Position numbers and translations under genes: made by a program
Source of the DNA: Bacillales bacterium
GTDB lineage: Bacteria; Bacillota; Bacilli; Bacillales; JAVBJX01
Reading direction: 5' to 3'
Assembly: GCA_031546705.1 (NCBI GenBank)
Contig: JAVBJX010000026.1
Location: forward strand, 13,604 to 77,603
DNA: 64,000 nucleotides
In this document: piece by piece, positions 8,643 through 64,000 of the stretch
Position numbering within the stretch: the first letter of the stretch is position 1
How the letters are laid out: every line of letters begins with the position of its first letter
The notes under the pieces: generated by a model
Seen by the model: the letters and a program-made list of their open reading frames with translations, nothing else
Told to the model about the DNA's origin: nothing
The model's database searches: none

Positions 8643-11585
8643 CTATTTCACAGCATACACGACTAGCTTACTCTTATTTTGTGAGGCATCTATCACCTGA
8701 ACCGAAATAAATGTACCTTTCCTTTGTTTTCCAATATTGAAAGAAAACAGTTGTGTACTAGTAGCTTTTGTTGTATATGTTTTACTTCCTAGTTTGATTA
8801 TTACTTGACTGTTTGCCTCAGCCTTTCCTGATAACAAAGTGCTTTTGGTTGTAAACAAATTAATACTAGCTTGTAATGGTGGTGTGACATCTTTAACAGT
8901 AATTGTTTTTTCAATGGTTCCACCGTCTGTTTCAGCAGATATTGTTACAATGGTTCCTGCTTTTAATAGGGAAGTACTGAAAGAAAATGTTTCTTTATCT
9001 GTTATTTTGGTTGTTCTAAAAATTACATTTCCTATTTTTACTGTAATAATTGCTTCACTTGTCCCACGACCTGTAATCGTTTTACTTACGTCCGTAATTG
9101 GATTGACTTGTAGGAAAGGAGGTTCTTTTACGACAAGTGGATCATATTCTTTTACTGTTCCTTCATTTGTAAAAATTGTATTTGTGGTGGGACCAAGTTT
9201 CATATCCTGATCTTTTTTTGTTGTATCAATAAGGAGTGAGTTTGTGCTTAAGTCAATAAGATTTGCTCTACTCATCTGTTCATTTGTTTCACCAAGAAGA
9301 AGGATATTATTTTTAGAAATGTCAATGCTTGTTACATTAGCTAGATTTGTATGGATGGTTTGATTTGTAGTTTCATAACCTTGTTCCACATTGTAAACGC
9401 CATTGATTCCATCACCAACAACAATTAATTGTTTGTTATCTTCTGTATAGGCAAAACTTGTATCATAGTAGCCTGAAAAATGGAGGTCATGAAGTTTCGC
9501 ACCTGTATCAAGACTTTGAATGTGCAGGTTACGTTGTTCATCATTTTGCAAAGAATAAAGCATAATGGCTAATGATTGGTTTGTTTCATTTATAGCTAAT
9601 TGGTGGATAGACCAGTTAGGAAAATTAAACTTTTGTGTTTCGCTTATATCAGACATATCAAAGTAAACAACGGAACCTTGTGAGTTTCCTGTTATGAGGG
9701 TCGCACTGTCTTGGGTAAATAAATAATCGGTAAATTCTCCTTCTATTTGTGTAACTGTCCAATGTTTATTTACATCCCAAATAAGGATTTGTTGGTCGAA
9801 TAAAAGGGCGACTTTTGTACCATCAGAACTAATTCGTACATTTTTAGGTGTGTCTTCAATATAAGTAGTTGTCGGTAACTTTTCTCCCGTTGTCATATCC
9901 CAAAGAAAAACGTCACTGTTTGTTTCATGAGTAACAGGATCAATTGCTTTGTTTATGGTAACCATCCATTTTCCGTTATCACTTATATCCATTGAAGTTG
10001 TATTTTCTGTTTGTGTCCATATCTTTTTTACTTTTAGTCTATCTTCACGATAGATAGGGTAACTTTTTGCTTTTACTGTAACAATAATAGAATCGCTTTT
10101 TAAGCCAAAATTATCCTCCGCAACTAATTTAAGTTCACTACCTATTTTCGCAGAAATCGGTATAGAAAATGGAACAGTGGAGAGGTCGCTTCCTTTTGGT
10201 GTTGTCGTTGTCAGTGTATGACCATCTGCAAATGTTGCTGTTATTTTACTGTTTGGTGTTGCTTGCCCAGTAATCTTCTCCTCTGTACTAGTAGCGGTCA
10301 GTTGCACATTATATCCATTTGGCAAAACAGCAAATGTAAAACGTGGCAAAGCGTACGAACCAATAGAGATACGCCCATCCGCTGTAACAATTTGCTTTCC
10401 ATTATTTGTAAAAGGAATACTACCATCTACGAACTCAGAAGTTGCTGTAAGATTTCTTTTAAAATGATAATCTTCATAATTATAAATAAGGTCATCTAGT
10501 TTTGCTAGATTTGTAATATTTTTCGTTTGTCCATCAAACATGTTTGCGTTGACTTGTATATTTTTTGTTTCGTTTGCTGTAAATGCTTGTTTTTGTGGTG
10601 TAACAGTTATAGATGAAAATACTTTAAAAAATTCAACTATATAAGTAATTGTGGCAAAAGAGCCATCTAGTTTTTGTAACCCTTCAATTGTCACATTGAA
10701 TGTATCACCATCTTGAATGAGTTGGTCATCTGGGCGGAAAATAATACAATTTCCAATACCAAATCCTTCTTCATTGACATAAAATATCCCATCACTTTGT
10801 CCTTTGCTAAAATTCCATGTTTTGTTATCCCTTGGTCTGGTGAGTGTAACAGAAATATTTTCGGCATGAGGTTGTGTATATAGAGTCGGATTTACAGTAA
10901 CAGACCATGGAAACTGCTTACCAAATGATTCAAGTGGCATATACCCAGCACTTGGAAAAGCAATATAATCATAACGTACAGATTCATTTCGACTCGTATC
11001 AAAAATTTGCATAGCGGTCATAGTATCAGCAAAACCAAATCCTGTTTTTTGTAAATCTGGATTTAAAATCCAGCGACGATGTCCAAGTTCTGGAATATTT
11101 ACTGAGTCGCCATCATTCATATAGCCATCAACGACGGAAGAATAAATGGATGCATATCCTTTTCCGATATTACTAGAGGAGGTAGATTCGTAACCTGCAC
11201 GATAAAATTCATCAGACATCCAAAGCGGTTTATTTGGATGATGGCTAAACTCTCCGCTAATAGCCAAAAGAAGAGCTCCATATTGTGCTTGAACATTTAA
11301 TTGCTCATCTATCTGAATATCATCAGGAAGATTTGCTAAGTAACGAGCAAAATTTGTTGCCTTCAATCCATCTTGTAAGGCGGAGTCATCCAGTTTTCCG
11401 ATAGATGGATTTTTTTCATCTATATGAGGTGTCTCTACATAGATTTGCTTAGAAGTTGGTAATGAGTCTATATATTTTTTTGCAATCTGTTCTTTGGAAT
11501 CATTAACCGCATGAACAGGAGAAGCAAGAGAGAAGGAAATGCTTATTAAAAAAAATAAAATACATTTTTTAAACAAAAAAATCAC
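8643..11585 (-). CDS. large secreted protein: CAP/SCP(PR-1-like) domain + beta-propeller-like repeats + C-terminal Ig-like repeats
   Basis: GTG start with signal peptide MIFLFKKCILFFLISISFSLASPVHA. CAP-type signature GHRRWILNPDLQKTGFGF. The centre has repeated blade-like motifs (ISDNGKWMVT, SSDGTKVALL, FTQDSATLITG). The C-terminus has two ~75-aa Ig-like repeats (TITGRGTSEAIITVKIG..., LLSGKAEANSQVIIKLGSK...). Confidence 0.65.
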   Translation of the reverse strand: MIFLFKKCILFFLISISFSLASPVHAVNDSKEQIAKKYIDSLPTSKQIYVETPHIDEKNPSIGKLDDSALQDGLKATNFARYLANLPDDIQIDEQLNVQAQYGALLLAISGEFSHHPNKPLWMSDEFYRAGYESTSSSNIGKGYASIYSSVVDGYMNDGDSVNIPELGHRRWILNPDLQKTGFGFADTMTAMQIFDTSRNESVRYDYIAFPSAGYMPLESFGKQFPWSVTVNPTLYTQPHAENISVTLTRPRDNKTWNFSKGQSDGIFYVNEEGFGIGNCIIFRPDDQLIQDGDTFNVTIEGLQKLDGSFATITYIVEFFKVFSSITVTPQKQAFTANETKNIQVNANMFDGQTKNITNLAKLDDLIYNYEDYHFKRNLTATSEFVDGSIPFTNNGKQIVTADGRISIGSYALPRFTFAVLPNGYNVQLTATSTEEKITGQATPNSKITATFADGHTLTTTTPKGSDLSTVPFSIPISAKIGSELKLVAEDNFGLKSDSIIVTVKAKSYPIYREDRLKVKKIWTQTENTTSMDISDNGKWMVTINKAIDPVTHETNSDVFLWDMTTGEKLPTTTYIEDTPKNVRISSDGTKVALLFDQQILIWDVNKHWTVTQIEGEFTDYLFTQDSATLITGNSQGSVVYFDMSDISETQKFNFPNWSIHQLAINETNQSLAIMLYSLQNDEQRNLHIQSLDTGAKLHDLHFSGYYDTSFAYTEDNKQLIVVGDGINGVYNVEQGYETTNQTIHTNLANVTSIDISKNNILLLGETNEQMSRANLIDLSTNSLLIDTTKKDQDMKLGPTTNTIFTNEGTVKEYDPLVVKEPPFLQVNPITDVSKTITGRGTSEAIITVKIGNVIFRTTKITDKETFSFSTSLLKAGTIVTISAETDGGTIEKTITVKDVTPPLQASINLFTTKSTLLSGKAEANSQVIIKLGSKTYTTKATSTQLFSFNIGKQRKGTFISVQVIDASQNKSKLVVYAVK

Positions 11586-11824: not shown

Positions 11825-13129
11825 ATGTCGAAATCAGCAGATTTATTAAAAAGAAGACAAGCAATTGTTGCTCAAGGAGTAAGTTTTGGGAATAGTTCTT
11901 TTGCTGAAACAGCAGAAGGAGCTATTATTACAAGTGTTGATGGTAAAGAGTTTATTGATTTTGCCGCTGGAATTGGCGTAATGAATGTTGGACATAGTCA
12001 TCCGAAAGTCAAAGAAGCACTTCACAAACAAGTAGACCTTTTTACACACACAAGTTTTAACGTAATGATGTATGAATCATACATTGAACTTGCTGAAAGA
12101 CTAGTGAAATTAACACCGGGGGATATGGCGAAGAAAGTAATGTTTTTAAATAGTGGAGCGGAAGCAGTTGAAAACGCTGTCAAAATTGCTCGCAAATATA
12201 CCAAACGTCCAGCTATTATTTCATTCGCTAGAGGGTTTCACGGAAGAACGTTGCTTACAATGACTATGACTGGAAAAGTGAAACCATATAAATATGAATT
12301 TGGTCCATTTGCTCCAGAAGTGTACAAAGCTCCATATCATTATCCTTATCGCCGTCCAGCACATATGACGGAAGAGCAATATGAACAAGAAACAATAGAT
12401 CAATTTAAAGATTTACTTTTACATGAAATTTCTCCAGAAATAATCGCAGCAGTAGTAATGGAATCTGTTCAAGGCGAAGGTGGTTTTATTGTTCCTTCCA
12501 AAAGATTTGTTCAAGAAGTAGCGGCTTTCTGTAAAGAACATGGTATTTTATTTATTGCTGATGAAATTCAAACTGGTTTTGGTAGAACAGGAAAAATGTT
12601 TGCAATGGAACATTATGAGGTTGTTCCAGATTTAATGACAATCGCTAAATCACTTGCGGCAGGTCTTCCACTCAGTGGTGTTGTTGGTCGTGCGGAAGTG
12701 ATGGATGCGGCAAATCCAGGTGAATTAGGTGGAACATATTCAGGAAATCCACTTGGTTGTCAAGCGGCATTAGCTGTTCTTGATATTATTGAAGAAGAAA
12801 AATTACTTGATCGTGCTGTACAGATAGGTGAAACAACAATAGCTCAGTTTAATAAATGGCAACAACAATTTAAACAAGTAGACGGCGTTCGTGGACTTGG
12901 GGCAATGTGTGCCTTTGAAATTGTGAAAGACAAGGAAACAAAAGAGCCAGATGGAGCTTTAACGAAAAAAATTATCGCAGAAGCAAATGAAAAAGGCTTA
13001 TTAATAATTAGTGCAGGAACATACGGAAATGTTGTTCGTTTGTTAATGCCGCTTGTTATTACAGATGAGCAATTACAAAAAGGATTTGCTATTTTAGAAG
13101 ACGTAATGAGTCAATATATGACAAAGTAA
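11825..13129 (+). CDS. gabT: 4-aminobutyrate (omega-amino acid) aminotransferase, class III PLP
   Basis: 434 aa with GIGVMNVGHSHPKV, DEIQTGFGRTGKMFA and PLP-lysine context TIAKSL. It is followed by a succinate-semialdehyde dehydrogenase gene. Confidence 0.88.
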   Translation: MSKSADLLKRRQAIVAQGVSFGNSSFAETAEGAIITSVDGKEFIDFAAGIGVMNVGHSHPKVKEALHKQVDLFTHTSFNVMMYESYIELAERLVKLTPGDMAKKVMFLNSGAEAVENAVKIARKYTKRPAIISFARGFHGRTLLTMTMTGKVKPYKYEFGPFAPEVYKAPYHYPYRRPAHMTEEQYEQETIDQFKDLLLHEISPEIIAAVVMESVQGEGGFIVPSKRFVQEVAAFCKEHGILFIADEIQTGFGRTGKMFAMEHYEVVPDLMTIAKSLAAGLPLSGVVGRAEVMDAANPGELGGTYSGNPLGCQAALAVLDIIEEEKLLDRAVQIGETTIAQFNKWQQQFKQVDGVRGLGAMCAFEIVKDKETKEPDGALTKKIIAEANEKGLLIISAGTYGNVVRLLMPLVITDEQLQKGFAILEDVMSQYMTK

Positions 13130-13346
13130 TCTTTAGGTAGAAAATATATAGAATTCTTTTTTTCGTGATTTATAAGGGATTGTGGCACTCTGTTTTGCTT
13201 TTAGCAAACACAATACTCCCAAAGTTAGGTGTTACTTTCCCAAATAATGATTGAATTTGAGGGTACTGTTATATTCAATGCTTAAAGAATTATTTGTCAT
13301 CTAAAATAAAATTCAGAAATATATCCCATTACAAGGAGTGTTACTC

Positions 13347-51631: not shown

Positions 51632-53011
51632 CTATTCACATGGAATAGAGATAATAAAGGTTGTTCCTTTTTCTAATTCACTTTCCGCTTCAATCGTTCC
51701 ATTGTGAAGTTCTATAATTTCTTTGACAACCGCTAAACCTAGACCAGTACCGCCAGTAGATCTTGTTCTTGATTTATCTACTCGATAAAAACGTTTAAAG
51801 ATATGGGGTAAATCTTCAGCAGGAATGCCTACTCCTTCATCTTCAATCGTCATTACCAAGCAATCAAGTTGTTCCATTACCTTAATAGTAATAGTGGAGT
51901 GTTTGTAGGCATATTGGTAAGAATTCATTAGTAAGTTTTGTAATACTTGATAGAATCGGTTAACATCCATATTTACATAAGTATCCATATGGCAATGAAT
52001 ATCTAATGTAATGTTCTTCTCTAGTAAAATACTAGAGAGTTTATCATGTACATTTCTTAGTAAGTCGTAAACGCAATGTTTAGTTTTATGTATAATAAAA
52101 TTATGATGTTCCGATTGAGCAAGAAACATCAAATCTTGAACAAGCTCCGTTATTCGGTCTATTTCTTCTTTGATAATGTGTAAATACTCATTTCTTTCAC
52201 TATCCTTCACAGAATCTTTTGAGGCAAGATCAGCATAACCTCTGATAAATGTTAAAGGGGTTCGTAATTCATGAGCAACCGTTGCCAGAAATTCATTTCT
52301 TTCTTTTTTTATAAAATCTAATTCAGAAGCTAATTTTTGGATGGAATTTGCTAAATCACTAATTTCATCATTTGATTGCATATCAAATGCTACGGATAAA
52401 TTTCCTTTTGCCATTTTCTCCGTTTCTTCTTTCATGGAAATCAAAGGCTTAGTAAGACTCTTTGATAAGAATAATGTAGTAATAATGGTAATTAAAAAAG
52501 TTATTACACCTGTTAATAAGAAAATCATTTTTAGACGAAAAATGAGTGCTTGGATAGATTTAGTATTTAAAAACATATAGACATAGCCTGCCGTACGATT
52601 ATTCAAATTGATTGGGCTGACAGTAGAGATATAATTATCCCCTTTCCAATCGGAGTGGATAATAGATCCATTTTCTTTGATATGTGATTTATTTAATGAC
52701 AAATGTTCTTTCATTAAAGAATCAAGTGGATGAGATTTGCCAAGTATTTTTTCATCAACGGATTGAATCACTACTTTCGTTTCGGCTTCCGACTCCATTA
52801 AAGCAACGTGCTTAATTGTTTCGCTAGTAAAGTGTTTTTCTAATACATCACGATGACTATTACCCCTAGTAATAAGTGAATGAATTTCTTCATCAACTCT
52901 GGTTTTGACTAGCGAAACATATAAAGTTGAAAATAATAGCGTCTCAATTAGTAAAGTTAAAATTAAAAAAGCTAACCCAAGCTTAACAGAAATAGATTTT
53001 GTTCTAAACAT
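51632..53011 (-). CDS. sensor histidine kinase (2 TM, periplasmic-type sensor, HAMP, HisKA, HATPase_c)
   Basis: H-box ATVAHELRTPLTFIRGY, N-box NLLMNSYQY, G-boxes DEGVGI and GGTGLGLAVVKEI. Confidence 0.9.
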   Translation of the reverse strand: MFRTKSISVKLGLAFLILTLLIETLLFSTLYVSLVKTRVDEEIHSLITRGNSHRDVLEKHFTSETIKHVALMESEAETKVVIQSVDEKILGKSHPLDSLMKEHLSLNKSHIKENGSIIHSDWKGDNYISTVSPINLNNRTAGYVYMFLNTKSIQALIFRLKMIFLLTGVITFLITIITTLFLSKSLTKPLISMKEETEKMAKGNLSVAFDMQSNDEISDLANSIQKLASELDFIKKERNEFLATVAHELRTPLTFIRGYADLASKDSVKDSERNEYLHIIKEEIDRITELVQDLMFLAQSEHHNFIIHKTKHCVYDLLRNVHDKLSSILLEKNITLDIHCHMDTYVNMDVNRFYQVLQNLLMNSYQYAYKHSTITIKVMEQLDCLVMTIEDEGVGIPAEDLPHIFKRFYRVDKSRTRSTGGTGLGLAVVKEIIELHNGTIEAESELEKGTTFIISIPCE

Positions 53012-53020
53012 AATATCTCC

Positions 53021-53695
53021 TTAACTATTGGATAACCATTTGTATCCAACCCCATAGACAGATTTCAAATAATCATCAATTGGATAATTTGACATTCGCA
53101 ATTTATCTCGCAAATTACGAATGTGTGAATCAACCGTTCTTCCTTCTGTATCTGCTGAAAATCCCCATACTTTTTCAATTAAATGTTCTCTACTAAAAAT
53201 TTGATTGACATGACAAAGAAATAGTCCAAGTAATGAAAATTCAATGGGTGTAAGTGTGATAGATGAATGTTTGTAAGTAACAAGATGTTTTTGCGGATCC
53301 CATACCAGATTATTAAAAGATACTCGTTTAATGGCTAATGTTCTCCGCAGTATTGCATTTATTCTTTCGAGTAATTCATCTTCATGAAATGGCTTTGTGA
53401 TATAGTCATCCGATCCAATTTTTAATCCGTGTACAATATCATTCTTTTGATCACGAGCGGTTACCATAATAATTGGAACGTCACTAAACTCTCTAATTTT
53501 TTGACACGTTTCCCACCCATCCATTACAGGCATCATCACATCAAGTAGTACTAAGTCATACTGATTTTGTGTTAAATAAGTAATTGCCTCTTCGCCTGAG
53601 TAGGCTTTTGTACAATGGTATTGATGCGGAGTAAGATATAGAGCTAGTAAATCAAGCATTCTAGGTTCATCATCAACAAGTAAAATAGAAATCAT
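53021..53695 (-). CDS. OmpR/PhoB-family response regulator
   Basis: Receiver domain (LLVDDEP, DLVLLDVMMP, ITKPF) plus a winged-helix C-terminus (VDSHIRNLRDKL...YGVGYKW). Confidence 0.9.
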   Translation of the reverse strand: MISILLVDDEPRMLDLLALYLTPHQYHCTKAYSGEEAITYLTQNQYDLVLLDVMMPVMDGWETCQKIREFSDVPIIMVTARDQKNDIVHGLKIGSDDYITKPFHEDELLERINAILRRTLAIKRVSFNNLVWDPQKHLVTYKHSSITLTPIEFSLLGLFLCHVNQIFSREHLIEKVWGFSADTEGRTVDSHIRNLRDKLRMSNYPIDDYLKSVYGVGYKWLSNS

Positions 53696-53946: not shown

Positions 53947-55443
53947 ATGAGTAAGAAATTGGTTTTTAGCGTAGTGGCTATTATTATCACTCTACTTTTA
54001 GGTGTTTCAGTAGGAATGATATGGGGGAGAAGTCAATCTTCGCATTCTATGGATAATAGTCATATGATGAGTGATGGTACTAAGATGGATAATGATCATA
54101 TGATGAGGATGGAACACGGGGCGGTAGAACTGAATAACAGCAAACAGAAAGAACGGCAACTCGCCATACCTACAATGTTACAGCCGGATAAAGATACTGG
54201 GAAAGATATTACTTATACAGTAGTTGCTAACAAAGGAGAAATGAATTTTAAAGACGGAAAAAAAACAAAAACGCTTGGTTATAATGGGAATTTTCTTGGA
54301 CCAGTATTAAAAATAAAAAAAGGTCAAACGGTTCACATCAAAACAGAAAATCAATTATCAGAAGAAACTTCTTTTCATTGGCATGGGTTAGTTCTACCCT
54401 CTAGTGCAGATGGTGGACCACACCAACCTATACAATCTGGTAAAACAAAACAAGTTGACTTTACTGTAAATCAAGAGGCAGCAACATTATGGTTTCATCC
54501 GCATCCAATGGGAAAGACTGCGAAACAAGTTTATGAAGGATTAGCAGGACTTCTTTATGTAGAGGATGACAAACAATTAGATATTCCAAAAAACTATGGA
54601 AAAGATGATATTCCTGTTATTGTTCAAGACAGAAAATTGAACGAGAATAATCAATTTGATTATGAAAATGATCTAAATCCAGATGGAACAACAGGAAATA
54701 CATTACTTATAAATGGAACAATTAATCCGTATTTTAACGTCACAAGTGAAAAAATTAGATTACGTTTAGTGAATGGCTCTAATGCTAGAAACTATAACTT
54801 TACCTTAGATGATCATTCTGACTTTACGCAAATTGCAACGGATGGAGGTTTTTTAGAAAAACCAGTATCTCTAAAAAAATTACCTTTATCTCCAGGAGAA
54901 CGGGCGGAGATTGTAGTAGATACAAGTAAATATAAAAAAGGCAGTCAAGTTCGTTTGATGGATGGCAATATCACCATATTATTACTTAAAATGGCTGATA
55001 GAGAAAAAAGCAACCCGTTACCTAGCAAGCTAAATCAAATTAATTCACCGTTAAAAGGAATAGAAAATATACACGTTGAAAAAATAGAAATAGCGGGCAT
55101 GGGACATATGGTTACTATCGATGGTAAGACATTTGATATGAATAGAATCGACAAAAACATCAAACAAGGAAAAGAAGAAGTTTGGGAAATATATAATGCT
55201 CCTGATATGATGGGCGATATGATTCATCCATTTCATATTCATGGTGTTCAATTCCAAATTATTTCCAGAAATGGTAAAATTCCATCAGCAAATGAACAAG
55301 GATGGAAAGATACGGTTGCTATCCATCCAAAAGAAACAGTAAAATTACGAGCTGAATTTAAAGAAAAAGGAGTGTTCATGTACCATTGCCATATTCTTGA
55401 ACATGAAGAAAATGGTATGATGGGGCAGTTTGAAGTTGAGTAA
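53947..55443 (+). CDS. multicopper oxidase (three-domain, CueO/CotA class)
   Basis: Copper-ligand motifs HWHG, HPHP, HPFHIHG and HCHILEHEENGMM. N-terminal TM/signal. His/Met-rich segment (HSMDNSHMMSDGTKMDNDHMMRMEH). Confidence 0.9.
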   Translation: MSKKLVFSVVAIIITLLLGVSVGMIWGRSQSSHSMDNSHMMSDGTKMDNDHMMRMEHGAVELNNSKQKERQLAIPTMLQPDKDTGKDITYTVVANKGEMNFKDGKKTKTLGYNGNFLGPVLKIKKGQTVHIKTENQLSEETSFHWHGLVLPSSADGGPHQPIQSGKTKQVDFTVNQEAATLWFHPHPMGKTAKQVYEGLAGLLYVEDDKQLDIPKNYGKDDIPVIVQDRKLNENNQFDYENDLNPDGTTGNTLLINGTINPYFNVTSEKIRLRLVNGSNARNYNFTLDDHSDFTQIATDGGFLEKPVSLKKLPLSPGERAEIVVDTSKYKKGSQVRLMDGNITILLLKMADREKSNPLPSKLNQINSPLKGIENIHVEKIEIAGMGHMVTIDGKTFDMNRIDKNIKQGKEEVWEIYNAPDMMGDMIHPFHIHGVQFQIISRNGKIPSANEQGWKDTVAIHPKETVKLRAEFKEKGVFMYHCHILEHEENGMMGQFEVE

Positions 55444-55587
55444 TAGAAAAATAATTTCCACAGCCTAGAAACTGCGAAATCTGCTATTATAGAGTATACC
55501 TTAGTTTATTCATAAGTGATATAATTTGAATAGCTCACTTTAATACAAATAGTAAACTACCAAAACACACTAATGGAGGAAATTATT

Positions 55588-56073
55588 TTGAAAAAACAAG
55601 TATCTATTCTATTGTTGGCTAGTCTTGTATTAGCTGGTTGTAGTAAGGAAGTCGAACACAAAGAAGAATCAGCAGCTCCTGTAGAATCAGCAATTCCTGT
55701 AGAAATAACAAAAAGTCTTGAAATATTACCAAGTTTTGTAAATGGTCATCCTGATATTGTTGCCCTTGCTTACAAAACAGCGGCTAAAAATCAAGAACTA
55801 CTCACATATATTCCTTGTTATTGCGGATGTGGAGATAGTATTCAGCATAAAGACAATTTAGATTGTTTTATTAAAGAAATAAAAGAAAATGGGGAAGTTG
55901 TTTGGGATGAGCATGGTGTAAATTGTGATGTATGTATTGAAACAGCGATTGAATCTGCACAGCAACATCAAGATAAAGTGCCAGCAAGTGAAATCAGAAA
56001 ATATATTGATGAGAAATATAAAGAAGGTTATTCAGAACCAACAAAAACAGAAATGCCACCAGCAAGTTTGTAG
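55588..56073 (+). CDS. PCYCGC-motif lipoprotein
   Basis: The likely TTG start at 55588 lies 8 nt after GGAGG. Lipobox LVLAGC. Literal motif IPCYCGCGDS plus a later CDVC. Confidence 0.7.
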   Translation: MKKQVSILLLASLVLAGCSKEVEHKEESAAPVESAIPVEITKSLEILPSFVNGHPDIVALAYKTAAKNQELLTYIPCYCGCGDSIQHKDNLDCFIKEIKENGEVVWDEHGVNCDVCIETAIESAQQHQDKVPASEIRKYIDEKYKEGYSEPTKTEMPPASL

Positions 56074-56138: not shown

Positions 56139-56834
56139 ATGTTAAAGAAAATATTTGCTGAAAATATGGGTGTTAGCAATTTAGGATGGTTAAGAAGTAA
56201 ATTTCATTTTTCATTTGCAGAGTATCATAACCCAGAGAATATTAATTTTGGTGTTTTGCGTGTATTAAATGATGACTTAATTGCGGCTGGTACGGGATTT
56301 GATACACATCCACATCGGGATATGGAAATTATTTCCTATGTAATTGATGGTTTTTTAACACATGGAGATAGTATGGGGAACAAACAAACATTAAAACGTG
56401 GAGATGTGCAGTATATGAGTGCAGGTACTGGTGTATACCATAGTGAACATAATTTAGGCAAAGAAACGGGAAGATTTTTACAAATCTGGATTATGCCAGA
56501 TAAGCGTGGTTATACGCCAAATTATGGCGATCACCGTTTTACAGAAGAGGATAGACATAACAAATGGTTATATATCGCTTCTCAAGACGACGATGCTCCT
56601 GTGAAAATTAATCAAGATATTCATATGTATGTACTTGAATTAGACACTGGAAGAGAAGAAACATTTACAGTTGGATCAAATAGACAAGCCTATTTAGTAC
56701 AGATTGAAGGTTCCTCTAAGATTAATGATGTGACACTTGATGAAAGAGATGCACTGGAAATTGTAGAGGAAGATATTACGATTCAAGCGAGTAAAAATTC
56801 TCATTTCCTTGTGATTGAGATGGAGAAAAGCTAA
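56139..56834 (+). CDS. pirin-family protein
   Basis: Cupin metal motif HPHRDMEIISYV and HSEHN. 231 aa. Confidence 0.88.
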   Translation: MLKKIFAENMGVSNLGWLRSKFHFSFAEYHNPENINFGVLRVLNDDLIAAGTGFDTHPHRDMEIISYVIDGFLTHGDSMGNKQTLKRGDVQYMSAGTGVYHSEHNLGKETGRFLQIWIMPDKRGYTPNYGDHRFTEEDRHNKWLYIASQDDDAPVKINQDIHMYVLELDTGREETFTVGSNRQAYLVQIEGSSKINDVTLDERDALEIVEEDITIQASKNSHFLVIEMEKS

Positions 56835-57039: not shown

Positions 57040-57660
57040 TTAGTTTCTACATACATAATCGGCTATTTCTACAGGTTTTTCGGTACACAGATAGTGATCT
57101 TCACCTTTCCAATATCTTTCTTCATATTTCTTCATACGGTCTTCCATGCTACCAATATACGTATCTCTCTTCAAGACCCGTTCATACCTTGTTTGGCGTG
57201 AGCAGTCAAGGTATATAACAAAATTAAAAAAACTTCGCCATTCTTTTCGCTGTAAAAAAATTCCTTCTATGATGCAAATAGTGTTCTTCTCTAAGAAAAA
57301 AGATTGCTCGGTAAGCGAATCATTTTCTTTATTATAGAAAGGAAGGTGAATATTTGTATTTCCACATTTAAGTGGTTGGAATAACTTTTCTTGGAGCATG
57401 GCAATATCCCATTGTAATTGATAATACTCATACCAACTTTCAAAACCTGTGTTATACCTCTCATCTGCTCGGGTAATGTGATTATCCATATGAATAACAC
57501 AAATAGAAATATTTTTCGCTGCAAAAAATATTTCTAAGTCATGAGTAATTGTAGATTTTCCTGCACCGCTAAGACCATCTAGCCCAACAATAAAATGGGT
57601 GGATGTATCTTTTTTCTCTGTGTAGCAATGTAAGATTTCAGAAGTTAGTACAGTTATCAT
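57040..57660 (-). CDS. P-loop kinase of the uridine kinase/phosphoribulokinase-like family
   Basis: Walker A GLDGLSGAGKST. 206 aa. Substrate not assignable. Confidence 0.65.
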   Translation of the reverse strand: MITVLTSEILHCYTEKKDTSTHFIVGLDGLSGAGKSTITHDLEIFFAAKNISICVIHMDNHITRADERYNTGFESWYEYYQLQWDIAMLQEKLFQPLKCGNTNIHLPFYNKENDSLTEQSFFLEKNTICIIEGIFLQRKEWRSFFNFVIYLDCSRQTRYERVLKRDTYIGSMEDRMKKYEERYWKGEDHYLCTEKPVEIADYVCRN

Positions 57661-57776: not shown

Positions 57777-58151
57777 TTATTTTAATGAGAATCCTTCATT
57801 GAAGTTTGTATATATTGTATTAGTAGATAAGAGCTCATGTATATATCGCTCTACTTTTCCTTTGTCCCGTTCCGTTAGTTGACCGAATTTTATTAGCGTT
57901 TCAATGTCGTCTGGTATATGTAACTTTGATTCTTCATCGCCTCCTGTAATAAGCCAATCAACGGTAACACCTAATGCACGGCTTATTAAAAATAAGTTTT
58001 CCGCTGAAACATTAACAACTCCACGCTCTATTTTGCTTAGAGCTCCCTGAGTAACCCCTGTTGAAGCGAACAAATCCTCGTGAGTTAAATTTTTCTTTTT
58101 TCTTGCTTGTTTTATCCGTTCTCCTACCAAATTTTTAAAATCAATTAGCAT
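57777..58151 (-). CDS. XRE-family HTH regulator (cI-like, 124 aa)
   Basis: HTH KNLTHEDLFASTGVTQGALSKIERG plus a ~55-aa C-terminal domain. GGAGG SD. Confidence 0.8.
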   Translation of the reverse strand: MLIDFKNLVGERIKQARKKKNLTHEDLFASTGVTQGALSKIERGVVNVSAENLFLISRALGVTVDWLITGGDEESKLHIPDDIETLIKFGQLTERDKGKVERYIHELLSTNTIYTNFNEGFSLK

Positions 58152-58727: not shown

Positions 58728-59855
58728 TTACCCTTTCTTCATCCAATGCCCCAAATCATTTTTCTTCAACACATCTTCCAATAATTGTGGCAATAAGTTC
58801 GGTGTACAACCAAAACAAGGAATTCCTATTCTTCCTAATTTCTGGGCGTTTCCTTCATGATATACAGGAATTCCCTTATCAGAAAGTGCTAATAAAGCAA
58901 TTACCTTCACCCCAGATTCGTGCATTTCTCTCATCCTCTTTAACATCCCAGCTTGATTTCCAAACTCATATAAATCAGAAACCAAAATAAAAATCGTCTT
59001 TAGTGGGTCTGTAATGAACGGCTCACAATATTGTAGAGATTTATGAATATCCGTTCCACCACCAAGTTGAATACCAAACAACATATCAACAGGGTCGGCT
59101 TTGCTTTGTTCTGTTAAATCAACTACCTCTGTATCAAAAACAACGACATGTGTTTTTAATGCAGGTAAACTTGCAAAAATTGATCCAATAATCGAAGCAT
59201 AAATTGCTGATTCTGCCATAGAGCCACTTTGATCAATATCTAAAATAATTGTCCAGTGACTTTGTTTTCTTGCTCGATCAAAGAAATAAAAGCGTTCAGG
59301 AATAACAATTTTTCTTTCCTTATCATAATTTTTTAAATTACGATTAATCGTGTATTTCCAATCAATACTTTGTGCTCCACTTGGTAAAGGGGAGTGACTT
59401 TTTTTATTTATTGCACCTTTGACGGCTTGACGAATATCATTTTCTAGTAGTTGTTTAACTTCTTCCACAAGTAATCGGACTAATTCTCTTGCACTATCTT
59501 TTGTTTTTTCAGGAATTTTACCTTTTAATGAAATGAGTGTAGCGACCATTTCAATACTAGGTTTGACACTACTTAGCATTTCAGGTTCAAAGAGTAGTTG
59601 GGTTAATCCTTTTCGTTCAATAGCATCGTTTTGAATGACGGAAACAACATCGGTTGGAAAAAAGGTGCGTACATCTCCAAGCCATTTTGTTAATGTGATG
59701 GAAGATTTCTCCAGTCCTCCTTGATGGCTATCATCATAAATTGCAGATAGTGCTTCATCCATAATTTGTTCTTCAGCAGTTAATGAATAATGCCCTGAGA
59801 AATTTTTCTCAACTGCTTGTCCAAGAATTAATCGCCAACGTTTTGTTTGTTCCAC
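58728..59855 (-). CDS. VWA-domain protein (YehP/CoxE-like)
   Basis: GTG start 6 nt after GGAGGG. ~190-aa helical N-terminal region, then a VWA domain with MIDAS residues DIDQSGS, GGGTD and VSD. Confidence 0.85.
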   Translation of the reverse strand: MEQTKRWRLILGQAVEKNFSGHYSLTAEEQIMDEALSAIYDDSHQGGLEKSSITLTKWLGDVRTFFPTDVVSVIQNDAIERKGLTQLLFEPEMLSSVKPSIEMVATLISLKGKIPEKTKDSARELVRLLVEEVKQLLENDIRQAVKGAINKKSHSPLPSGAQSIDWKYTINRNLKNYDKERKIVIPERFYFFDRARKQSHWTIILDIDQSGSMAESAIYASIIGSIFASLPALKTHVVVFDTEVVDLTEQSKADPVDMLFGIQLGGGTDIHKSLQYCEPFITDPLKTIFILVSDLYEFGNQAGMLKRMREMHESGVKVIALLALSDKGIPVYHEGNAQKLGRIGIPCFGCTPNLLPQLLEDVLKKNDLGHWMKKG

Positions 59856-59866
59856 ACTATCCCTCC

Positions 59867-62068
59867 TTAGAAATCAAAATCGAATTCATTTAATTGCTCA
59901 AGTAACGCTTCTTCCGCTTCATTTAACGTGCCTGCTAATTGTTCACTAATCAAATCTGTATCCATATTCCATAAATCTCCTAGTGATTCTGCTACTCTTG
60001 TTCGGTCTTCATTGGTAAATGAAGTAAATGCTCTTCTTAAAAAGACAACAGCACGTTGAAATTGTTCATCGGAAAGGGAAGTAACATATTGATCAATTTT
60101 CTCCCAAATGTAAAAGCGAGAAAGCAAGGCGTATTTATTTTTCATACATAATCCTTCAAACCAACCTGTCCCTAAATCAACAGGAACACCCGGTGAAAGT
60201 CGGCGTGATATTTCTTCTGCCAATGTTTGTTGATCTATGTTATTTCTTTCTAGTAGGAGTGTACAAGCATAGCCTGATAATAGCGGATTACGATCATCTC
60301 TTAATGCTAATTCACGCAAAGTATGTGTCCATAGGGCTTCATCTACATGTTCATACAATTCAATTCCTACTGCATTGACTCGTTGAACATGAGTCATCAT
60401 TTCTCGTGCCGCTACATTGTCACAACCAGATGCAGGGAGAAGTAGTAATGTTACTCGTAAAAACAATCTTTCGATAATCGGGATAAATGAGGCTGTATCT
60501 ATTTTGCGGACATCGCCATATTGGATAAGCCTTGCTATTTCATTAATCGCAAGAGCCGTATCATTGAAATCTCCTGCATCAACAGATAATCGTTGTAATG
60601 TTACTTTAGCAGTTTCCATCATCTCCGTCATGCCGCAAATATAGGCGTTATAGGTGATACTAGCCGCTTTTGAAATAGTTTCACACTGGTCAAGATTATT
60701 TTTCAATTGGTAGGCTGTTGCCAAATTTAAAGTTTCACCAAGTAGGGTAGATTCTACTATTTGAATTTCCACTTCTGGTGTCCATTGTACATTCCAATTT
60801 TCCGCCCATGATGCTCGGTCTTGTGATGTACTCGAAGGAATTGCAAATTTAATTCCTAACACTTCTAGTTTATGAAGAAAAAATGAACGGTTTAAATCTA
60901 AAAATGCAGCTTCAACCGATTTAACACGCCGATTTTCACGCAAATCTAATTCTAGTAATTGGATTTCATTTGTTCGATATTTTTCTAATTTTAACCGTTT
61001 TAATTCACGATAAAAATCATCTTGTAACGAAGTTTGACTGACTCCTTCTGGTAGACTTCCAATAGAGTTGCCTACTTCCACTTTTGCACACGCTTGAACA
61101 ATGGAAGAAAAATCTCCACGCCCTAAACAAACAGTTGCCGCATCTCGCAAATCTCGGAGTGTTGGCTTGCTATTGCGAAAGGTGGCTAATGAATGTGCTA
61201 AACGGACACTTTCAATAACTTCTGCTGATGACCGAAAGTTACCAAGTTGTCGCATCTGGATAGCAATGGAAGATAAGAAAAATGTTGGTAAGTCCGTATC
61301 ATTTTGTAGACATTTCCACATCATCGAAAAATAATTCGGGGCATGGTTTCCTGCTCCATATCCAGATAGACTGGATAATTTATAATTGGCATAAGGCATT
61401 AGTGTTAATTTTGTTGGAACAGGCTGAATTAATTTTTCATTAAAGACTTCTGTATCTTCACGCAATCCTTTTATATGAAAAGCTCCTGTCACCACAAATA
61501 CTTTATGTCCAGCTTGTTGCATCATAGTAATTTTCTCTCTCATAAAAGCTTCACGAATTCGATTTCGTTCACTTTCCGCATCAAACGAGCGTAATTGTTC
61601 AGAGAAAGTTGTCAGTGCTCGAACAAATAAGTGAGGTTCTTGAATTTGTTCGAATTGACGCTCCCAAAAAGATTCATAGTCTAATTCGTTAGCAGACTCA
61701 ACAATTTGTTCATAAAAATCCCAAGTTAGTCCATGATTATCAAGATCCTGCGATGGAATAGATAAGGTACTTGGTAAATCAATAAATTCGACATGAACAT
61801 GATGTTTTTTTGCCCATTTGATTGCTTGATATTCTGGTGAATATTCGGCAAGTGGGTAGAGAATTGTTTTTACAGGTAACTGTTGTGTATATGCCATAAT
61901 TGCAATCGGTGGCGTTGTGTTTGTGCGAACGATATCGTTCATTAAATCGCTGGCATCGGATGGTCCTTCAATCAAAACAGCAGTTGGTTTTACTTCGTCT
62001 AGCATCTGGCAAAGATGAAAAGCAGAAGCTGGTGATAAATGGCGAACACCAAAAATATATGGTGTCAT
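59867..62068 (-). CDS. 733-aa protein, DUF5682/YehM-like (N-terminal TraB/TIKI-like motifs, long helical C-terminus)
   Basis: The ATG overlaps the upstream stop (ATGA). N-terminus IFGVRHLSPASAFHLCQMLDEVKPTAVLIEGP resembles my recollection of DUF5682 proteins. See findings for the motif analysis. Confidence 0.65.
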   Translation of the reverse strand: MTPYIFGVRHLSPASAFHLCQMLDEVKPTAVLIEGPSDASDLMNDIVRTNTTPPIAIMAYTQQLPVKTILYPLAEYSPEYQAIKWAKKHHVHVEFIDLPSTLSIPSQDLDNHGLTWDFYEQIVESANELDYESFWERQFEQIQEPHLFVRALTTFSEQLRSFDAESERNRIREAFMREKITMMQQAGHKVFVVTGAFHIKGLREDTEVFNEKLIQPVPTKLTLMPYANYKLSSLSGYGAGNHAPNYFSMMWKCLQNDTDLPTFFLSSIAIQMRQLGNFRSSAEVIESVRLAHSLATFRNSKPTLRDLRDAATVCLGRGDFSSIVQACAKVEVGNSIGSLPEGVSQTSLQDDFYRELKRLKLEKYRTNEIQLLELDLRENRRVKSVEAAFLDLNRSFFLHKLEVLGIKFAIPSSTSQDRASWAENWNVQWTPEVEIQIVESTLLGETLNLATAYQLKNNLDQCETISKAASITYNAYICGMTEMMETAKVTLQRLSVDAGDFNDTALAINEIARLIQYGDVRKIDTASFIPIIERLFLRVTLLLLPASGCDNVAAREMMTHVQRVNAVGIELYEHVDEALWTHTLRELALRDDRNPLLSGYACTLLLERNNIDQQTLAEEISRRLSPGVPVDLGTGWFEGLCMKNKYALLSRFYIWEKIDQYVTSLSDEQFQRAVVFLRRAFTSFTNEDRTRVAESLGDLWNMDTDLISEQLAGTLNEAEEALLEQLNEFDFDF

Positions 62069-63150
62069 TTTGTATTCAACTCACTACAAGATTTATAAAG
62101 TTCCCGCCATTCGCTCCCTTTTTTCTTCATGACATTGTCTAAATACTCTTTCCAGACGGCTTTGTCTTTGTCATCATCTTTCACAATTGCTCCTTGTAAG
62201 CCTGCCGCTAAATCTTCTTCTGAAATTTCTCCACTCCCAAAACTAGCGGCAAGTGCCATACTATTTGTTAAGAGTGAAATAGCTTCTGCTGTCGAAATAA
62301 CACTGCTTGGGGATTTAATTTTTTCTTTGCGATCTAATGTTGCTCCGCTTCGTAATTCCCGAAAAATAGTTACAACTCTTTCCACGACATCATTTGTTGG
62401 CAGTTCGGCTTGTAAATCAAATTGTGTGGCTAAATCACGGACACGTTTTCTAACAATATTCATTTCTGTTTCTAAGTCATTTGGGGTTGGTAACACAATA
62501 ATGTTAAAGCGGCGTTTTAAAGCAGATGACATTTCATTTACACCACGGTCACGAGTATTTGCTGTAGCAATAATCGAAAAGCCACGAACTGCGGATAATT
62601 CTGTACCAAGTTCAGGAATGGAAATATTTTTTTCTGACAAAATGGAGATAAGGGCATCTTGTACTTCTGATGAACAACGAGAAATTTCTTCAAAACGAGC
62701 AATGGATCCTTGTTCCATAGAACGATAAATTGGGCTTTTTACTAATGCTTCTTGTGATGGCCCATTAGCAAGGAGTATGGCGTAGTTCCATGAATAACGG
62801 ACTTGTTCCTCAGTTGTTCCTGCTGTTCCTTGAATAACTTTTCCTGAGTCATTACAAATTGCTGCACTAAGCAGTTCAGATAACATGGATTTTGCTGTCC
62901 CTGGTTCACCAATTAATAATAAAGCTCGGTCTGTTACTAATGTAGCAATTGCCATTTCTACTAGTCTTTGATTGCCAATATATTTAGGCGTTATTTCTTT
63001 TTTGCCACACAATCCCCCTGCAATAAAAGTATAAACAGAGCGAGGGGACATTTGCCATCCTGCTGGAATTTTTCCTTTATCTTCTTTTTTGAGTAGTTCT
63101 ATTTCTTCTGCATACAGTTTTTCTGCAGATAAACGTAAGATGTCAGTCAT
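62065..63150 (-). CDS. MoxR-type AAA+ ATPase (AAA_5, YehL-like)
   Basis: Walker A GEPGTAKS, Walker B-like IARFEEISR, sensor-1 IATAN, Arg-finger region SALKRRF. The likely start is ATG 63150 after GGAAGGAAAG; the track ORF starts at 63186. Confidence 0.85.
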   Translation of the reverse strand: MTDILRLSAEKLYAEEIELLKKEDKGKIPAGWQMSPRSVYTFIAGGLCGKKEITPKYIGNQRLVEMAIATLVTDRALLLIGEPGTAKSMLSELLSAAICNDSGKVIQGTAGTTEEQVRYSWNYAILLANGPSQEALVKSPIYRSMEQGSIARFEEISRCSSEVQDALISILSEKNISIPELGTELSAVRGFSIIATANTRDRGVNEMSSALKRRFNIIVLPTPNDLETEMNIVRKRVRDLATQFDLQAELPTNDVVERVVTIFRELRSGATLDRKEKIKSPSSVISTAEAISLLTNSMALAASFGSGEISEEDLAAGLQGAIVKDDDKDKAVWKEYLDNVMKKKGSEWRELYKSCSELNTK

Positions 63151-64000
63151 TGTTTTCTTTCCTTCCGATTGCTTCTTGAAGTGCATATACTACAACAGCT
63201 TTCCAATTCCAAGCTTCTTGGGTCAATTGTTCTTCGACAAATGCTAAGGTATCTATTTGCTGTTTTGGAGTTAGGTAATCAAAAATAATGCTCGGAGCAT
63301 ATGGATAATAATTTCCTTTTTTTAATTTATCTGTTGCTTGTAAACTTCGATAAAGCACTTGTATTGCAGCTTTGTGTTGTGCTCGAGTTAAAGCGTATAA
63401 AGCCCATCTTGTTAACCCGATTGTTAATTCTGGTCTATTATCTATTTGTTGTAAAATTAGTTGGAGATGTTCTGCATTTATTATTTTGGTTGTCATTTTG
63501 AAGACAAGTTCTTTCTCCGTTAACTTCATTAACAATGAAAGCCACCGTTCATCCCATGTATAATTATTGCCAGGAATACAGTGAGCAGAATACATAGGAT
63601 ACAAAGAACTACTATGTTTGGCTGTAAATAGTAAATCTAATGTTTGTAATAGGGCTTTTGCCACCTTATCTTGCCGACCCTTCTCTACAAACGGAGCATA
63701 CAGTTCAAACAATTGGTTGGGCTTGTTCAATTTAAGAGAAGCATCAAAAGCATAAGAAATAAAAAATGCTTGTTTAGCTTTCAAACTTTTAGGCGGATGG
63801 GTGCCAAGTTGCTCTACATATTGTTCTTGTCCATTGTTTAATAATATTTTTAAAACCATATCAAGGATATCTACACTTATCTTTTTTTCTGGTAATTCTT
63901 TTAAGAATTCAATGGTATCTATTGATAACGTGGAAGATTCTTGCAAACGTCCTATCATCATTGCAAAATGTTCTTCAGTTTGCTCACTTGGATCTTCCGA
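63143..64000 (-). CDS. first gene of the AAA/VWA operon, 3' part (frame still open at the window edge)
   Basis: The track lists 63143-63961, but the codons upstream of that ATG (SEDPSEQTEEHFA) are in frame with no stop up to nt 64000. All-helical repeat-like sequence. Its stop overlaps the ATG of the ATPase gene by 8 nt. Confidence 0.5.
   Translation of the reverse strand, partial: SEDPSEQTEEHFAMMIGRLQESSTLSIDTIEFLKELPEKKISVDILDMVLKILLNNGQEQYVEQLGTHPPKSLKAKQAFFISYAFDASLKLNKPNQLFELYAPFVEKGRQDKVAKALLQTLDLLFTAKHSSSLYPMYSAHCIPGNNYTWDERWLSLLMKLTEKELVFKMTTKIINAEHLQLILQQIDNRPELTIGLTRWALYALTRAQHKAAIQVLYRSLQATDKLKKGNYYPYAPSIIFDYLTPKQQIDTLAFVEEQLTQEAWNWKAVVVYALQEAIGRKENND

Follow-up and report, generated by a model that had tools for sequence, protein, structure and literature searches.

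A predicted, highly diverged TIKI/TraB-type domain at the N-terminus of DUF5682 (YehM) proteins, encoded within a MoxR-VWA gene cluster

Known members of the TIKI superfamily act on Wnt, Ras, peptide pheromones and macrolides. The erythromycin esterases (Ere enzymes) among them are stand-alone enzymes of ~400 amino acids (aa) with large inserts, and they hydrolyse the macrolide lactone. To our knowledge, the only TIKI-type peptidases so far known in bacteria are secreted toxins (RRSP) and pheromone-shutdown proteins. The superfamily core is a central parallel beta-sheet with flanking alpha-helices, and the active sites are located at the C-terminal ends of the strands (PMC6254334). We have analyzed a 64,000-nucleotide stretch of DNA from a Bacillales bacterium, referred to as a whole as the window, that carries a gene for a DUF5682 protein, the orthologue of Escherichia coli yehM. 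Residues ~1-205 of this protein very likely constitute a highly diverged domain of the TIKI/TraB/PrgY/GumN/ChaN/erythromycin-esterase superfamily. While the fold and the chemistry are known, what would be new is a predicted cytoplasmic, extremely divergent TIKI-type domain as the enzyme candidate of a Yeh-type MoxR-VWA module.

Two groups of described systems are relevant for comparison. In the TIKI1/2 Wnt proteases and the Ras/Rap1 endopeptidase RRSP, as in the DUF5682 protein, the proposed catalytic centre consists of His and Glu residues located where parallel strands end, and in TIKI and RRSP appended domains recruit the substrate (PMC6254334). TIKI is metal-dependent and RRSP is active without metal, while the Ere enzymes use a His-Glu catalytic pair and their metal is reportedly structural, not catalytic (PMC6254334). 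The TraB/PrgY/GumN family (PF01963) includes E. coli YbaP, enterococcal PrgY/TraB, Xanthomonas GumN, TRABD and Tetrahymena COXTT5, which an entry in the supplement of PMC10060162 lists as a TraB family protein of 385 aa. It has in common with DUF5682 the predicted alpha/beta fold and the order and nearly the spacing of the motifs, which run from GxxH through a Glu at a strand end, one acidic residue and a further acidic residue at a strand end to RxxxM and a second GxxH. The E. coli ybaP gene has no MoxR or VWA neighbor, whereas the DUF5682 gene is embedded in a MoxR-VWA operon and its product has a helical fusion.

The second group comprises the MoxR-vWA systems (CoxD/CoxE, NorQ/NorD and ternary conflict systems), in which, as in the DUF5682 cluster, a MoxR AAA+ protein and a VWA protein are encoded side by side with a large third component. 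The proposed division of labor is capture of a peptide by the VWA protein and remodeling of the complex by the ATPase (Kaur et al. 2020, PMC7159879). The third component of the ternary conflict systems of Kaur et al. 2020 is VMAP, iSTAND or a beta-propeller, whereas here it is DUF5682, in which no such domains were found. CoxD/CoxE-type systems have a linked client metalloenzyme; none was found beside the DUF5682 cluster. The nearest counterpart is the E. coli yehL-yehM-yehP-yehQ cluster, whose core has the matching order (identities of 40% for MoxR, 27% for DUF5682 and 33% for VWA) and which also encodes a SWIM protein. The Bacillota cluster begins with the SWIM gene, which in E. coli comes after the VWA gene, and the position upstream of yehL is taken by the DUF4132 protein YehI in E. 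coli as opposed to a 600-aa HEAT protein in Bacillota. Our literature search returned no paper on the function of DUF5682 and none assigning a function to yehM; yehM, yehL and yehP appeared only in genome lists. Nothing joined MoxR, vWA and TIKI, and Kaur et al. 2020 and Altae-Tran et al. 2023 are without the Yeh/DUF5682 module. A TIKI-type assignment of DUF5682 was not found in the literature searched; the Pfam clan, InterPro or ECOD may already record it.

The membership of the protein in DUF5682 is clear (454.9 bits against a cut-off of 26, with residues 21-699 on positions 3-695 of the 727 of the profile PF18934). E. coli K-12 YehM is its orthologue (27% identity, E 2e-34) and matches PF18934 itself with E 2.4e-98. 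A total of 5,021 homologues were obtained at E ≤ 1e-5, and a phmmer search of 1.84 billion cluster representatives with residues 1-240 gave 1,990 clusters at 50% identity. The family range includes Bacillota, Proteobacteria (E. coli K-12 yehM) and Planctomycetes. The TIKI-like domain, residues 1-205 when its stretch of DNA is read on the minus strand (the plus strand is riddled with stop codons), is fused to an alpha-helical region of ~530 aa, for which neither a Pfam scan nor a comparison of the full-length profile with the PDB gave an informative match.

Conservation was assessed in an alignment of the query with 82 full-length representatives at 30-52% identity (n = 83), and was the same in a stricter subset of 31 sequences with no pair >42% identical and 30-41% identity to the query. 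The original prediction had compared three strings from the N-terminus with TraB-family motifs, IFGVRHLSPASAFHLCQMLDEVKPTAVLIEGP (residues 5-36), ESERNRIREAFMREKI (residues 165-180) and KVFVVTGAFHIKGL (residues 189-202). All three were quoted exactly, and both of the GxxH motifs that it described are present, as G7-V-R-H10 and G195-A-F-H198. R9 and H10 each occur in 81/83 sequences, the other two having gaps, and G195 and H198 occur in all 83. The three residues singled out for a conservation check, H10, E34 and H198, are thus kept across homologues, invariant or nearly so, and all are present in YehM, which carries every motif residue (GIRH, LIEGP, FSPEW, FIDLP, REAFM and GGWH). E34 is the proposed partner in a His-Glu pair. 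The middle motif stands only in part. Its true register is R172-E173-x-x-M176, with R172 and M176 found in 83/83 sequences, but E165, which belonged to the motif as first proposed, is Glu in just 13/83 and has to be dropped. Position 173, the Asn of the TraB motif R-N-x-x-[MW], is Glu in 80/83 sequences and Asp in the other 3. The features are collected in Table 1.

Table 1. Coordinates of the DUF5682 gene, its motifs and its neighbors in the window
Feature	Position	Strand	Evidence
DUF5682 gene (yehM orthologue)	59867..62068	minus	Open reading frame (ORF), 733 aa; PF18934 E 7e-136
Predicted N-terminal TIKI/TraB-like alpha/beta domain, residues 1-205	61454..62068	minus	AlphaFold2 (AF2) model, Foldseek, hhalign
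Motif 1, G7-V-R-H10 (first GxxH, right after strand 1)	62039..62050	minus	Aligns to TraB/GumN G38..H41
E34, end of strand 2 (LIEGP)	61967..61969	minus	83/83; aligns to invariant TraB E67
E79 (YSPEY motif)	61832..61834	minus	83/83; ungapped onto TraB D/E141
D97, end of strand 92-97 (FIDLP)	61778..61780	minus	83/83; ungapped extension onto invariant TraB E159
R172-E-A-F-M176 motif, corresponding to TraB R228-N-x-x-M/W232	61541..61555	minus	Segment hhalign P 8.8e-6; PF01963 profile 217-246
Motif 2, G195-A-F-H198 (second GxxH, right after last strand)	61475..61486	minus	Aligns to invariant TraB G249..H252
E140 and R160, invariant or nearly invariant charged residues of the helical insert	61589..61651	minus	E140 83/83, R160 81/83; TraB counterpart not assigned
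MoxR-type AAA+ ATPase (YehL-like)	62065..63186	minus	PF07728 AAA_5 E 6e-38; Walker A GEPGTAKS
CoxE-type VWA protein (YehP-like)	58728..59855	minus	PF05762 VWA_CoxE E 3.5e-44; metal ion-dependent adhesion site (MIDAS) DQSGS at residue 208
HEAT-repeat partner, C-terminal ~286 aa, cut by window end	63143..64000	minus	Frame open to base 64000
Histidine kinase (two-component system near copper genes)	51632-53011		
Response regulator (same two-component system)	53021-53695		
Multicopper oxidase	53947-55443	plus	
PCYCGC-motif lipoprotein	55573-56073	plus	
Pirin/quercetinase-like cupin	56139-56834	plus	
Uridine-kinase/PRK-family P-loop protein	57040-57660	minus	After VWA gene
Xre-type helix-turn-helix (HTH) protein	57777-58151	minus	After VWA gene

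The relationship to TraB is detectable with profiles. When the isolated N-terminus (residues 1-210) was compared with PF01963 (TraB_PrgY_gumN), residues 172-201 matched positions 217-246 of the 263 in the profile with E 5.7e-4 and 20.3 bits; the whole protein gave 9.7 bits. Of 31 diverse N-termini scanned singly against Pfam, 8 matched ChaN (best E 3.2e-4) and 3 matched TraB (best E 5.6e-5) at E ≤ 0.1. Besides DUF5682 these were the only recurrent families, the 13 others all being singletons, and the ChaN matches span the C-terminal half of the domain including the second GxxH. For profile-profile comparison a diverse TraB/GumN set was needed because the homologues of E. coli YbaP are too alike: the YbaP-only profile (effective number of sequences, Neff, 2.2) gave a non-significant E of 0.1 with hhalign and matched only the segment from YSPEY into the following helix. 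The TraB/GumN alignment used instead was seeded by the TraB/GumN gene of a Cohnella phaseoli locus and reaches down to 21% identity. Against it, the DUF5682 N-terminal alignment gave E 8.3e-5 with a probability of 60.7% over 37 columns, placing REAFM...GAFH on RNxxM...GAxHL, and a separate hhalign run gave E 1.6e-4.

The three segments of the domain were also tested separately, and for each the best local match fell on the collinear part of TraB. Residues 1-50 matched TraB 34-67 (P 0.037; H10 on H41 and E34 on E67), residues 50-110 matched TraB 143-155 (P 0.16) and residues 160-220 matched TraB 226-257 (P 8.8e-6). In the middle segment the ungapped register puts E79 on D/E141 and D97 on E159. 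The invariant or near-invariant positions of TraB/GumN are G38, H41, E67, [DE]141 (100% acidic), E159, R228 (70/71), N229, [MW]232, G249 and H252, and the DUF5682 residues H10, E34, E79, D97, R172, M176, G195 and H198 are collinear with H41, E67, [DE]141, E159, R228, [MW]232, G249 and H252. The spacing between motifs is 24/45/18/75/26 in DUF5682 versus 26/74/18/69/24 in TraB/GumN, the stretch between motifs 2 and 3 being ~29 residues shorter in DUF5682. DUF5682 further differs in having Glu/Asp173 where TraB/GumN has Asn229, and Asp97 where TraB/GumN has Glu159. Reading of the DUF5682 sequence by eye, to which no predictor was applied, revealed neither a signal peptide nor a membrane anchor. 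The real hhalign score was 35.1, whereas 60 block-shuffled alignments scored at most 23.3 (median 14.3) and the reversed TraB alignment 17.4. Sequence searches against the PDB with the whole protein, the N-terminal profile and the full-length profile returned nothing relevant; the TraB/GumN profile matched no solved structure by sequence either.

Structure prediction agrees with these alignments. An initial model built from 37 sequences at about 50% identity (predicted local distance difference test, pLDDT, 75.6) had as top Foldseek PDB matches EreC 6xcs (E 0.02, probability 0.84), Bcr135 3b55/2rad, 7w5z_E and PMT 2ec5/2ebf. It was superseded by a second AF2 model built from 119 sequences, with pLDDT 90.2, a predicted template modeling (TM) score of 0.86 and pLDDT ≥ 50 up to residue 205. 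The order of strands (b) and helices (a) in this model is b1(4-8), a, b2(30-36), a, b(55-60), b(68-73), a, b(92-97), helices, b(190-195), a; such predicted alternation agrees with the superfamily core. H10, E34, D97 and H198 lie at or just past the C-terminal ends of strands. The top Foldseek match in BFVD, and the sole one there at E ≤ 0.001, was a TraB family protein (Marseillevirus LCMAC201; E 1.6e-5, probability 1.00, TM 0.49 in both directions, 238 columns). The best six matches in the PDB were 7w5z_E, 8b6h_DQ, 8bqs_DQ and Bcr135 (3b55, 2rad_A and 2rad_B), with E 0.02-0.3 and probabilities of 0.85-0.33. The first three, chains of 383-384 residues from Tetrahymena complex IV, are most likely COXTT5, judged by length alone. 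The erythromycin esterases (EreC 6XCS and Bcr135 3B55/2RAD) were among the top PDB matches across the models, with E 0.02-0.3 and TM about 0.33-0.36. Tyrosine phosphatases and small GTPases appeared among the lower-ranked matches with probabilities ≤ 0.2.

The reading of the N-terminal ~200 aa as TraB/TIKI-like, as put forward in the original prediction, is thus borne out by four independent lines of evidence (conservation, collinear mapping, profile-profile comparison and structure); the fold search that it proposed gave a significant TraB-family match in BFVD, alongside the significant hhalign match to TraB/GumN. The catalytic-type set of His10, Glu34, Glu79, Asp97, Arg172 and His198 appears complete, at the predicted C-terminal edge of a parallel beta-sheet. 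Several observations weigh against this assignment or against the enzymatic role it suggests. The score for PF01963 falls short of the gathering cut-off of 26.8 bits, and that for PF04187 (ChaN), 14.3 bits with E 0.041, falls short of 27.7. The hhalign probability is 50-61% and the confident core comprises 37 columns. The PDB Foldseek matches have E 0.02-0.3 and TM 0.33-0.40, none reaching E ≤ 0.001, and neither ChaN (2G5G) nor RRSP is among the top 50. In DUF5682, Arg9 precedes H10 and nothing corresponds to RRSP E3900, a Glu at position -2 relative to the first His; in addition, the DUF5682 N-terminus gave no direct sequence or structure match to RRSP. ChaN, to which DUF5682 N-termini give sub-threshold matches, is a haem-binding family according to Pfam. 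Not every member of the superfamily is an enzyme: PMT C1/C2 lacks the 2His/2Glu motif and is inactive (PMC6254334). We infer from strand-end positions alone that the six catalytic-type residues share one pocket in the model, and experimental data for any DUF5682 protein were not found in the literature. Because it lies below both gathering cut-offs, the DUF5682 N-terminus belongs to neither PF01963 nor PF04187. The most fitting description is a separate, distant family of the TIKI superfamily, with homology at the superfamily level.

Two conserved elements of DUF5682 lie outside the domain. Just past it, residues 222-240 (61349-61405) form a strongly conserved block, T-L-M-P-Y-x(4)-L-S-x(3)-G-Y-G-A-G, modeled with low confidence, which may serve as a lid or hinge or contribute to the pocket. 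The C-terminus (59867-59902, ...LEQLNEFDFDF) is an acidic tail, N-x-F-D-F-x-D, that is nearly invariant in the alignment of the Bacillota clade and missing from E. coli YehM, whose end reads ...NWGVFHV. The tail could be a ligand of the VWA MIDAS site or of the ATPase.

In order to define the genetic context, we surveyed 81 loci, 80 from GTDB species genomes and that of E. coli. The MoxR-DUF5682-VWA core is present in 80/81 loci, including E. coli and two Planctomycetes; in the exception only DUF5682 and VWA were found. The complete order SWIM-HEAT-MoxR-DUF5682-VWA is fully collinear in 74/81. The stop codon of the MoxR gene overlaps the DUF5682 start by 4 nucleotides (nt), and MoxR is the upstream neighbor in 80/81 loci; the DUF5682 gene is translationally coupled to this upstream ATPase gene. 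The VWA gene lies 11 nt downstream, is the downstream neighbor in 81/81 loci and has an intact MIDAS by pattern search. The ATPase and VWA partners that the original prediction assigned to the 733-aa protein therefore do flank its gene (Table 1). The N-terminus of the MoxR ATPase scores just above the Pfam bpMoxR cut-off (28.2 versus 27 bits), with a partial match to positions 8-55 of the 205 in the profile. This partial match is the only link found to the MoxR-vWA ternary systems and hints that their ATPases are related to it. By eye and without an alignment, the expected Walker B site (hhhhDE) of this ATPase reads IARFEEI, that is Glu-Glu and not Asp-Glu.

The ORF at the window end aligns to the 601-aa HEAT protein encoded in the Bacillus sp. 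CGMCC 1.16541 locus, over residues 378-595 of the latter and with E 1e-15, and HEAT_2 was matched by the HEAT-repeat proteins of that locus and of the C. phaseoli locus. Since in relatives a SWIM zinc-finger gene precedes the HEAT gene and this ORF is open at the window edge, the operon extends past the window. Flanking genes are not conserved, the best family being present in 8/80 loci, which argues that the five genes are a self-contained module and not an accessory of a particular enzyme. A linked client enzyme was rejected as a candidate on the same grounds. PADLOC and NCBIfam have no family for the DUF5682, VWA or SWIM protein and did not recognize the module.

By analogy with the known enzymes, the TIKI-like domain is probably an active hydrolase that works with the ATPase-VWA pair. 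From gene order alone we infer that DUF5682 is the effector of this system. A His-Glu pair (H10 or H198 with E34) would activate water and hydrolyse a peptide or ester bond, as has been proposed for TIKI, RRSP and the erythromycin esterases (PMC6254334); placing the substrate or a metal would fall to Arg172 and to the acidic E79 and D97. The metal ligands and metallohydrolase of the original prediction are one possibility, as TIKI and RRSP differ in their need for metal. Via its MIDAS site the VWA protein would hold the target protein or peptide and the MoxR ring would remodel the complex using ATP. With the TIKI-like domain as catalytic output, cleavage would be ATP-gated. Going further, the Yeh-type module might be an unrecognized, horizontally mobile, ATP-gated proteolytic system serving conflict/defence or stress-triggered protein processing, a suggestion that we regard as tentative and on balance doubtful. 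Equally tentative are the roles that such a system would assign: a cytoplasmic TIKI-type peptidase as the output enzyme, the VWA protein selecting the target and the MoxR ring licensing the cleavage.

The finding of a predicted complete TIKI/TraB-type constellation turns the yehLMPQ-type module from unannotated genes into a hypothesis of ATPase, adaptor and hydrolase. It predicts H10, E34, D97, R172 and H198, together with E79, as sites where point mutations would abolish function, and the superfamily would gain a very divergent, presumably cytoplasmic branch linked to an AAA+ ATPase. As an in silico domain assignment with a predicted activity, its value is that of a lead for long-standing E. 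coli 'y-genes'.

The foremost alternative gives the same fold a different role. The domain may be TIKI/ChaN-like but non-enzymatic, its His, Glu and Asp residues binding a metal or a tetrapyrrole-type cofactor that the MoxR-VWA pair inserts or delivers into a client in an ATP-dependent manner; models for this would be CoxD/CoxE, NorQ/NorD and the chelatases CobS/CobT/CobN and BchI/BchD/BchH. A large third subunit beside an AAA+/VWA pair recalls the class I chelatases, the partners here belong to CoxD/CoxE-type families (AAA_5, and VWA_CoxE at 151 bits), and the DUF5682 N-termini touch the ChaN model more often than the TraB model (8/31 versus 3/31). Known MoxR-VWA pairs insert metal cofactors, as described in PMC7159879 and PMC9976466. 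We nevertheless consider cofactor delivery unlikely. It is weakened by the lack of a linked client, as no client metalloenzyme or cofactor-biosynthesis gene is conserved beside the cluster, by the invariant Arg172, which with the complete TraB-type constellation suits catalysis better than plain metal binding, and by the closer match to TraB, since the best structural and profile matches are TraB-family and not ChaN.

It is also conceivable that the fold is TIKI-like but degenerate, a dead domain like PMT C2 with the purely structural role of a surface on which the MoxR ring or the VWA protein docks. Residues ~220-733 are indeed a helical scaffold without enzymatic signature, and inactive superfamily members exist, as PMT without the 2His/2Glu motif has no activity (PMC6254334). 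In DUF5682, however, the catalytic residues are invariant or nearly so down to 27-30% identity, from Bacillota to E. coli. Dead domains lose catalytic residues, and a dead scaffold is very unlikely given this conservation. The least credible explanation in our view, and a highly improbable one, is a convergent or chance resemblance, in which an unrelated Rossmann-like alpha/beta fold (e.g. phosphatase- or P-loop-like) happens to carry two GxxH strings. The weak E-values against solved structures (0.02 at best), the sub-threshold level of every Pfam TraB/ChaN match and the phosphatases and GTPases among lower-ranked Foldseek matches would fit it, but the latter have probabilities ≤ 0.2, while two models and two libraries rank the TIKI superfamily first, in one case at E 1.6e-5. 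Moreover, five or six motifs occur in collinear order and their spacing agrees, and the shuffled and reversed controls score far lower. The TIKI-superfamily assignment, with hydrolysis as its probable function, is the reading that we prefer.

Elsewhere in the window, the copper-flavoured genes (multicopper oxidase, PCYCGC and pirin) were considered as partners of the cluster and rejected, being on the other strand and not conserved with it. The Xre-type HTH and PRK-family genes that follow the VWA gene are not conserved beside the cluster in other loci. Base composition gave no clear island signal, with a GC content of 0.35-0.38 in the cluster versus 0.31-0.35 nearby. In the C. phaseoli locus a bona fide TraB/GumN gene of 345 aa (12177-13214 of that locus) lies ~1.6 kb downstream of the VWA gene; this is probably a coincidence, since it was seen in only 1/81 loci. 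The MoxR, DUF5682 and VWA proteins of the two planctomycete loci, from Rhodopirellula sallentina and a Planctomycetales metagenome-assembled genome, are 47-71% identical to the Bacillaceae ones and as close to them as many Bacillota relatives are, which suggests recent inter-phylum horizontal transfer of the module. In Bacillus sp. CGMCC 1.16541 the cluster is immediately followed by an IS605 OrfB/TnpB-like transposase fragment (10884-11471 of that locus; OrfB_IS605 plus Cas12f1-like TNB), consistent with the cluster residing in variable or mobile contexts.

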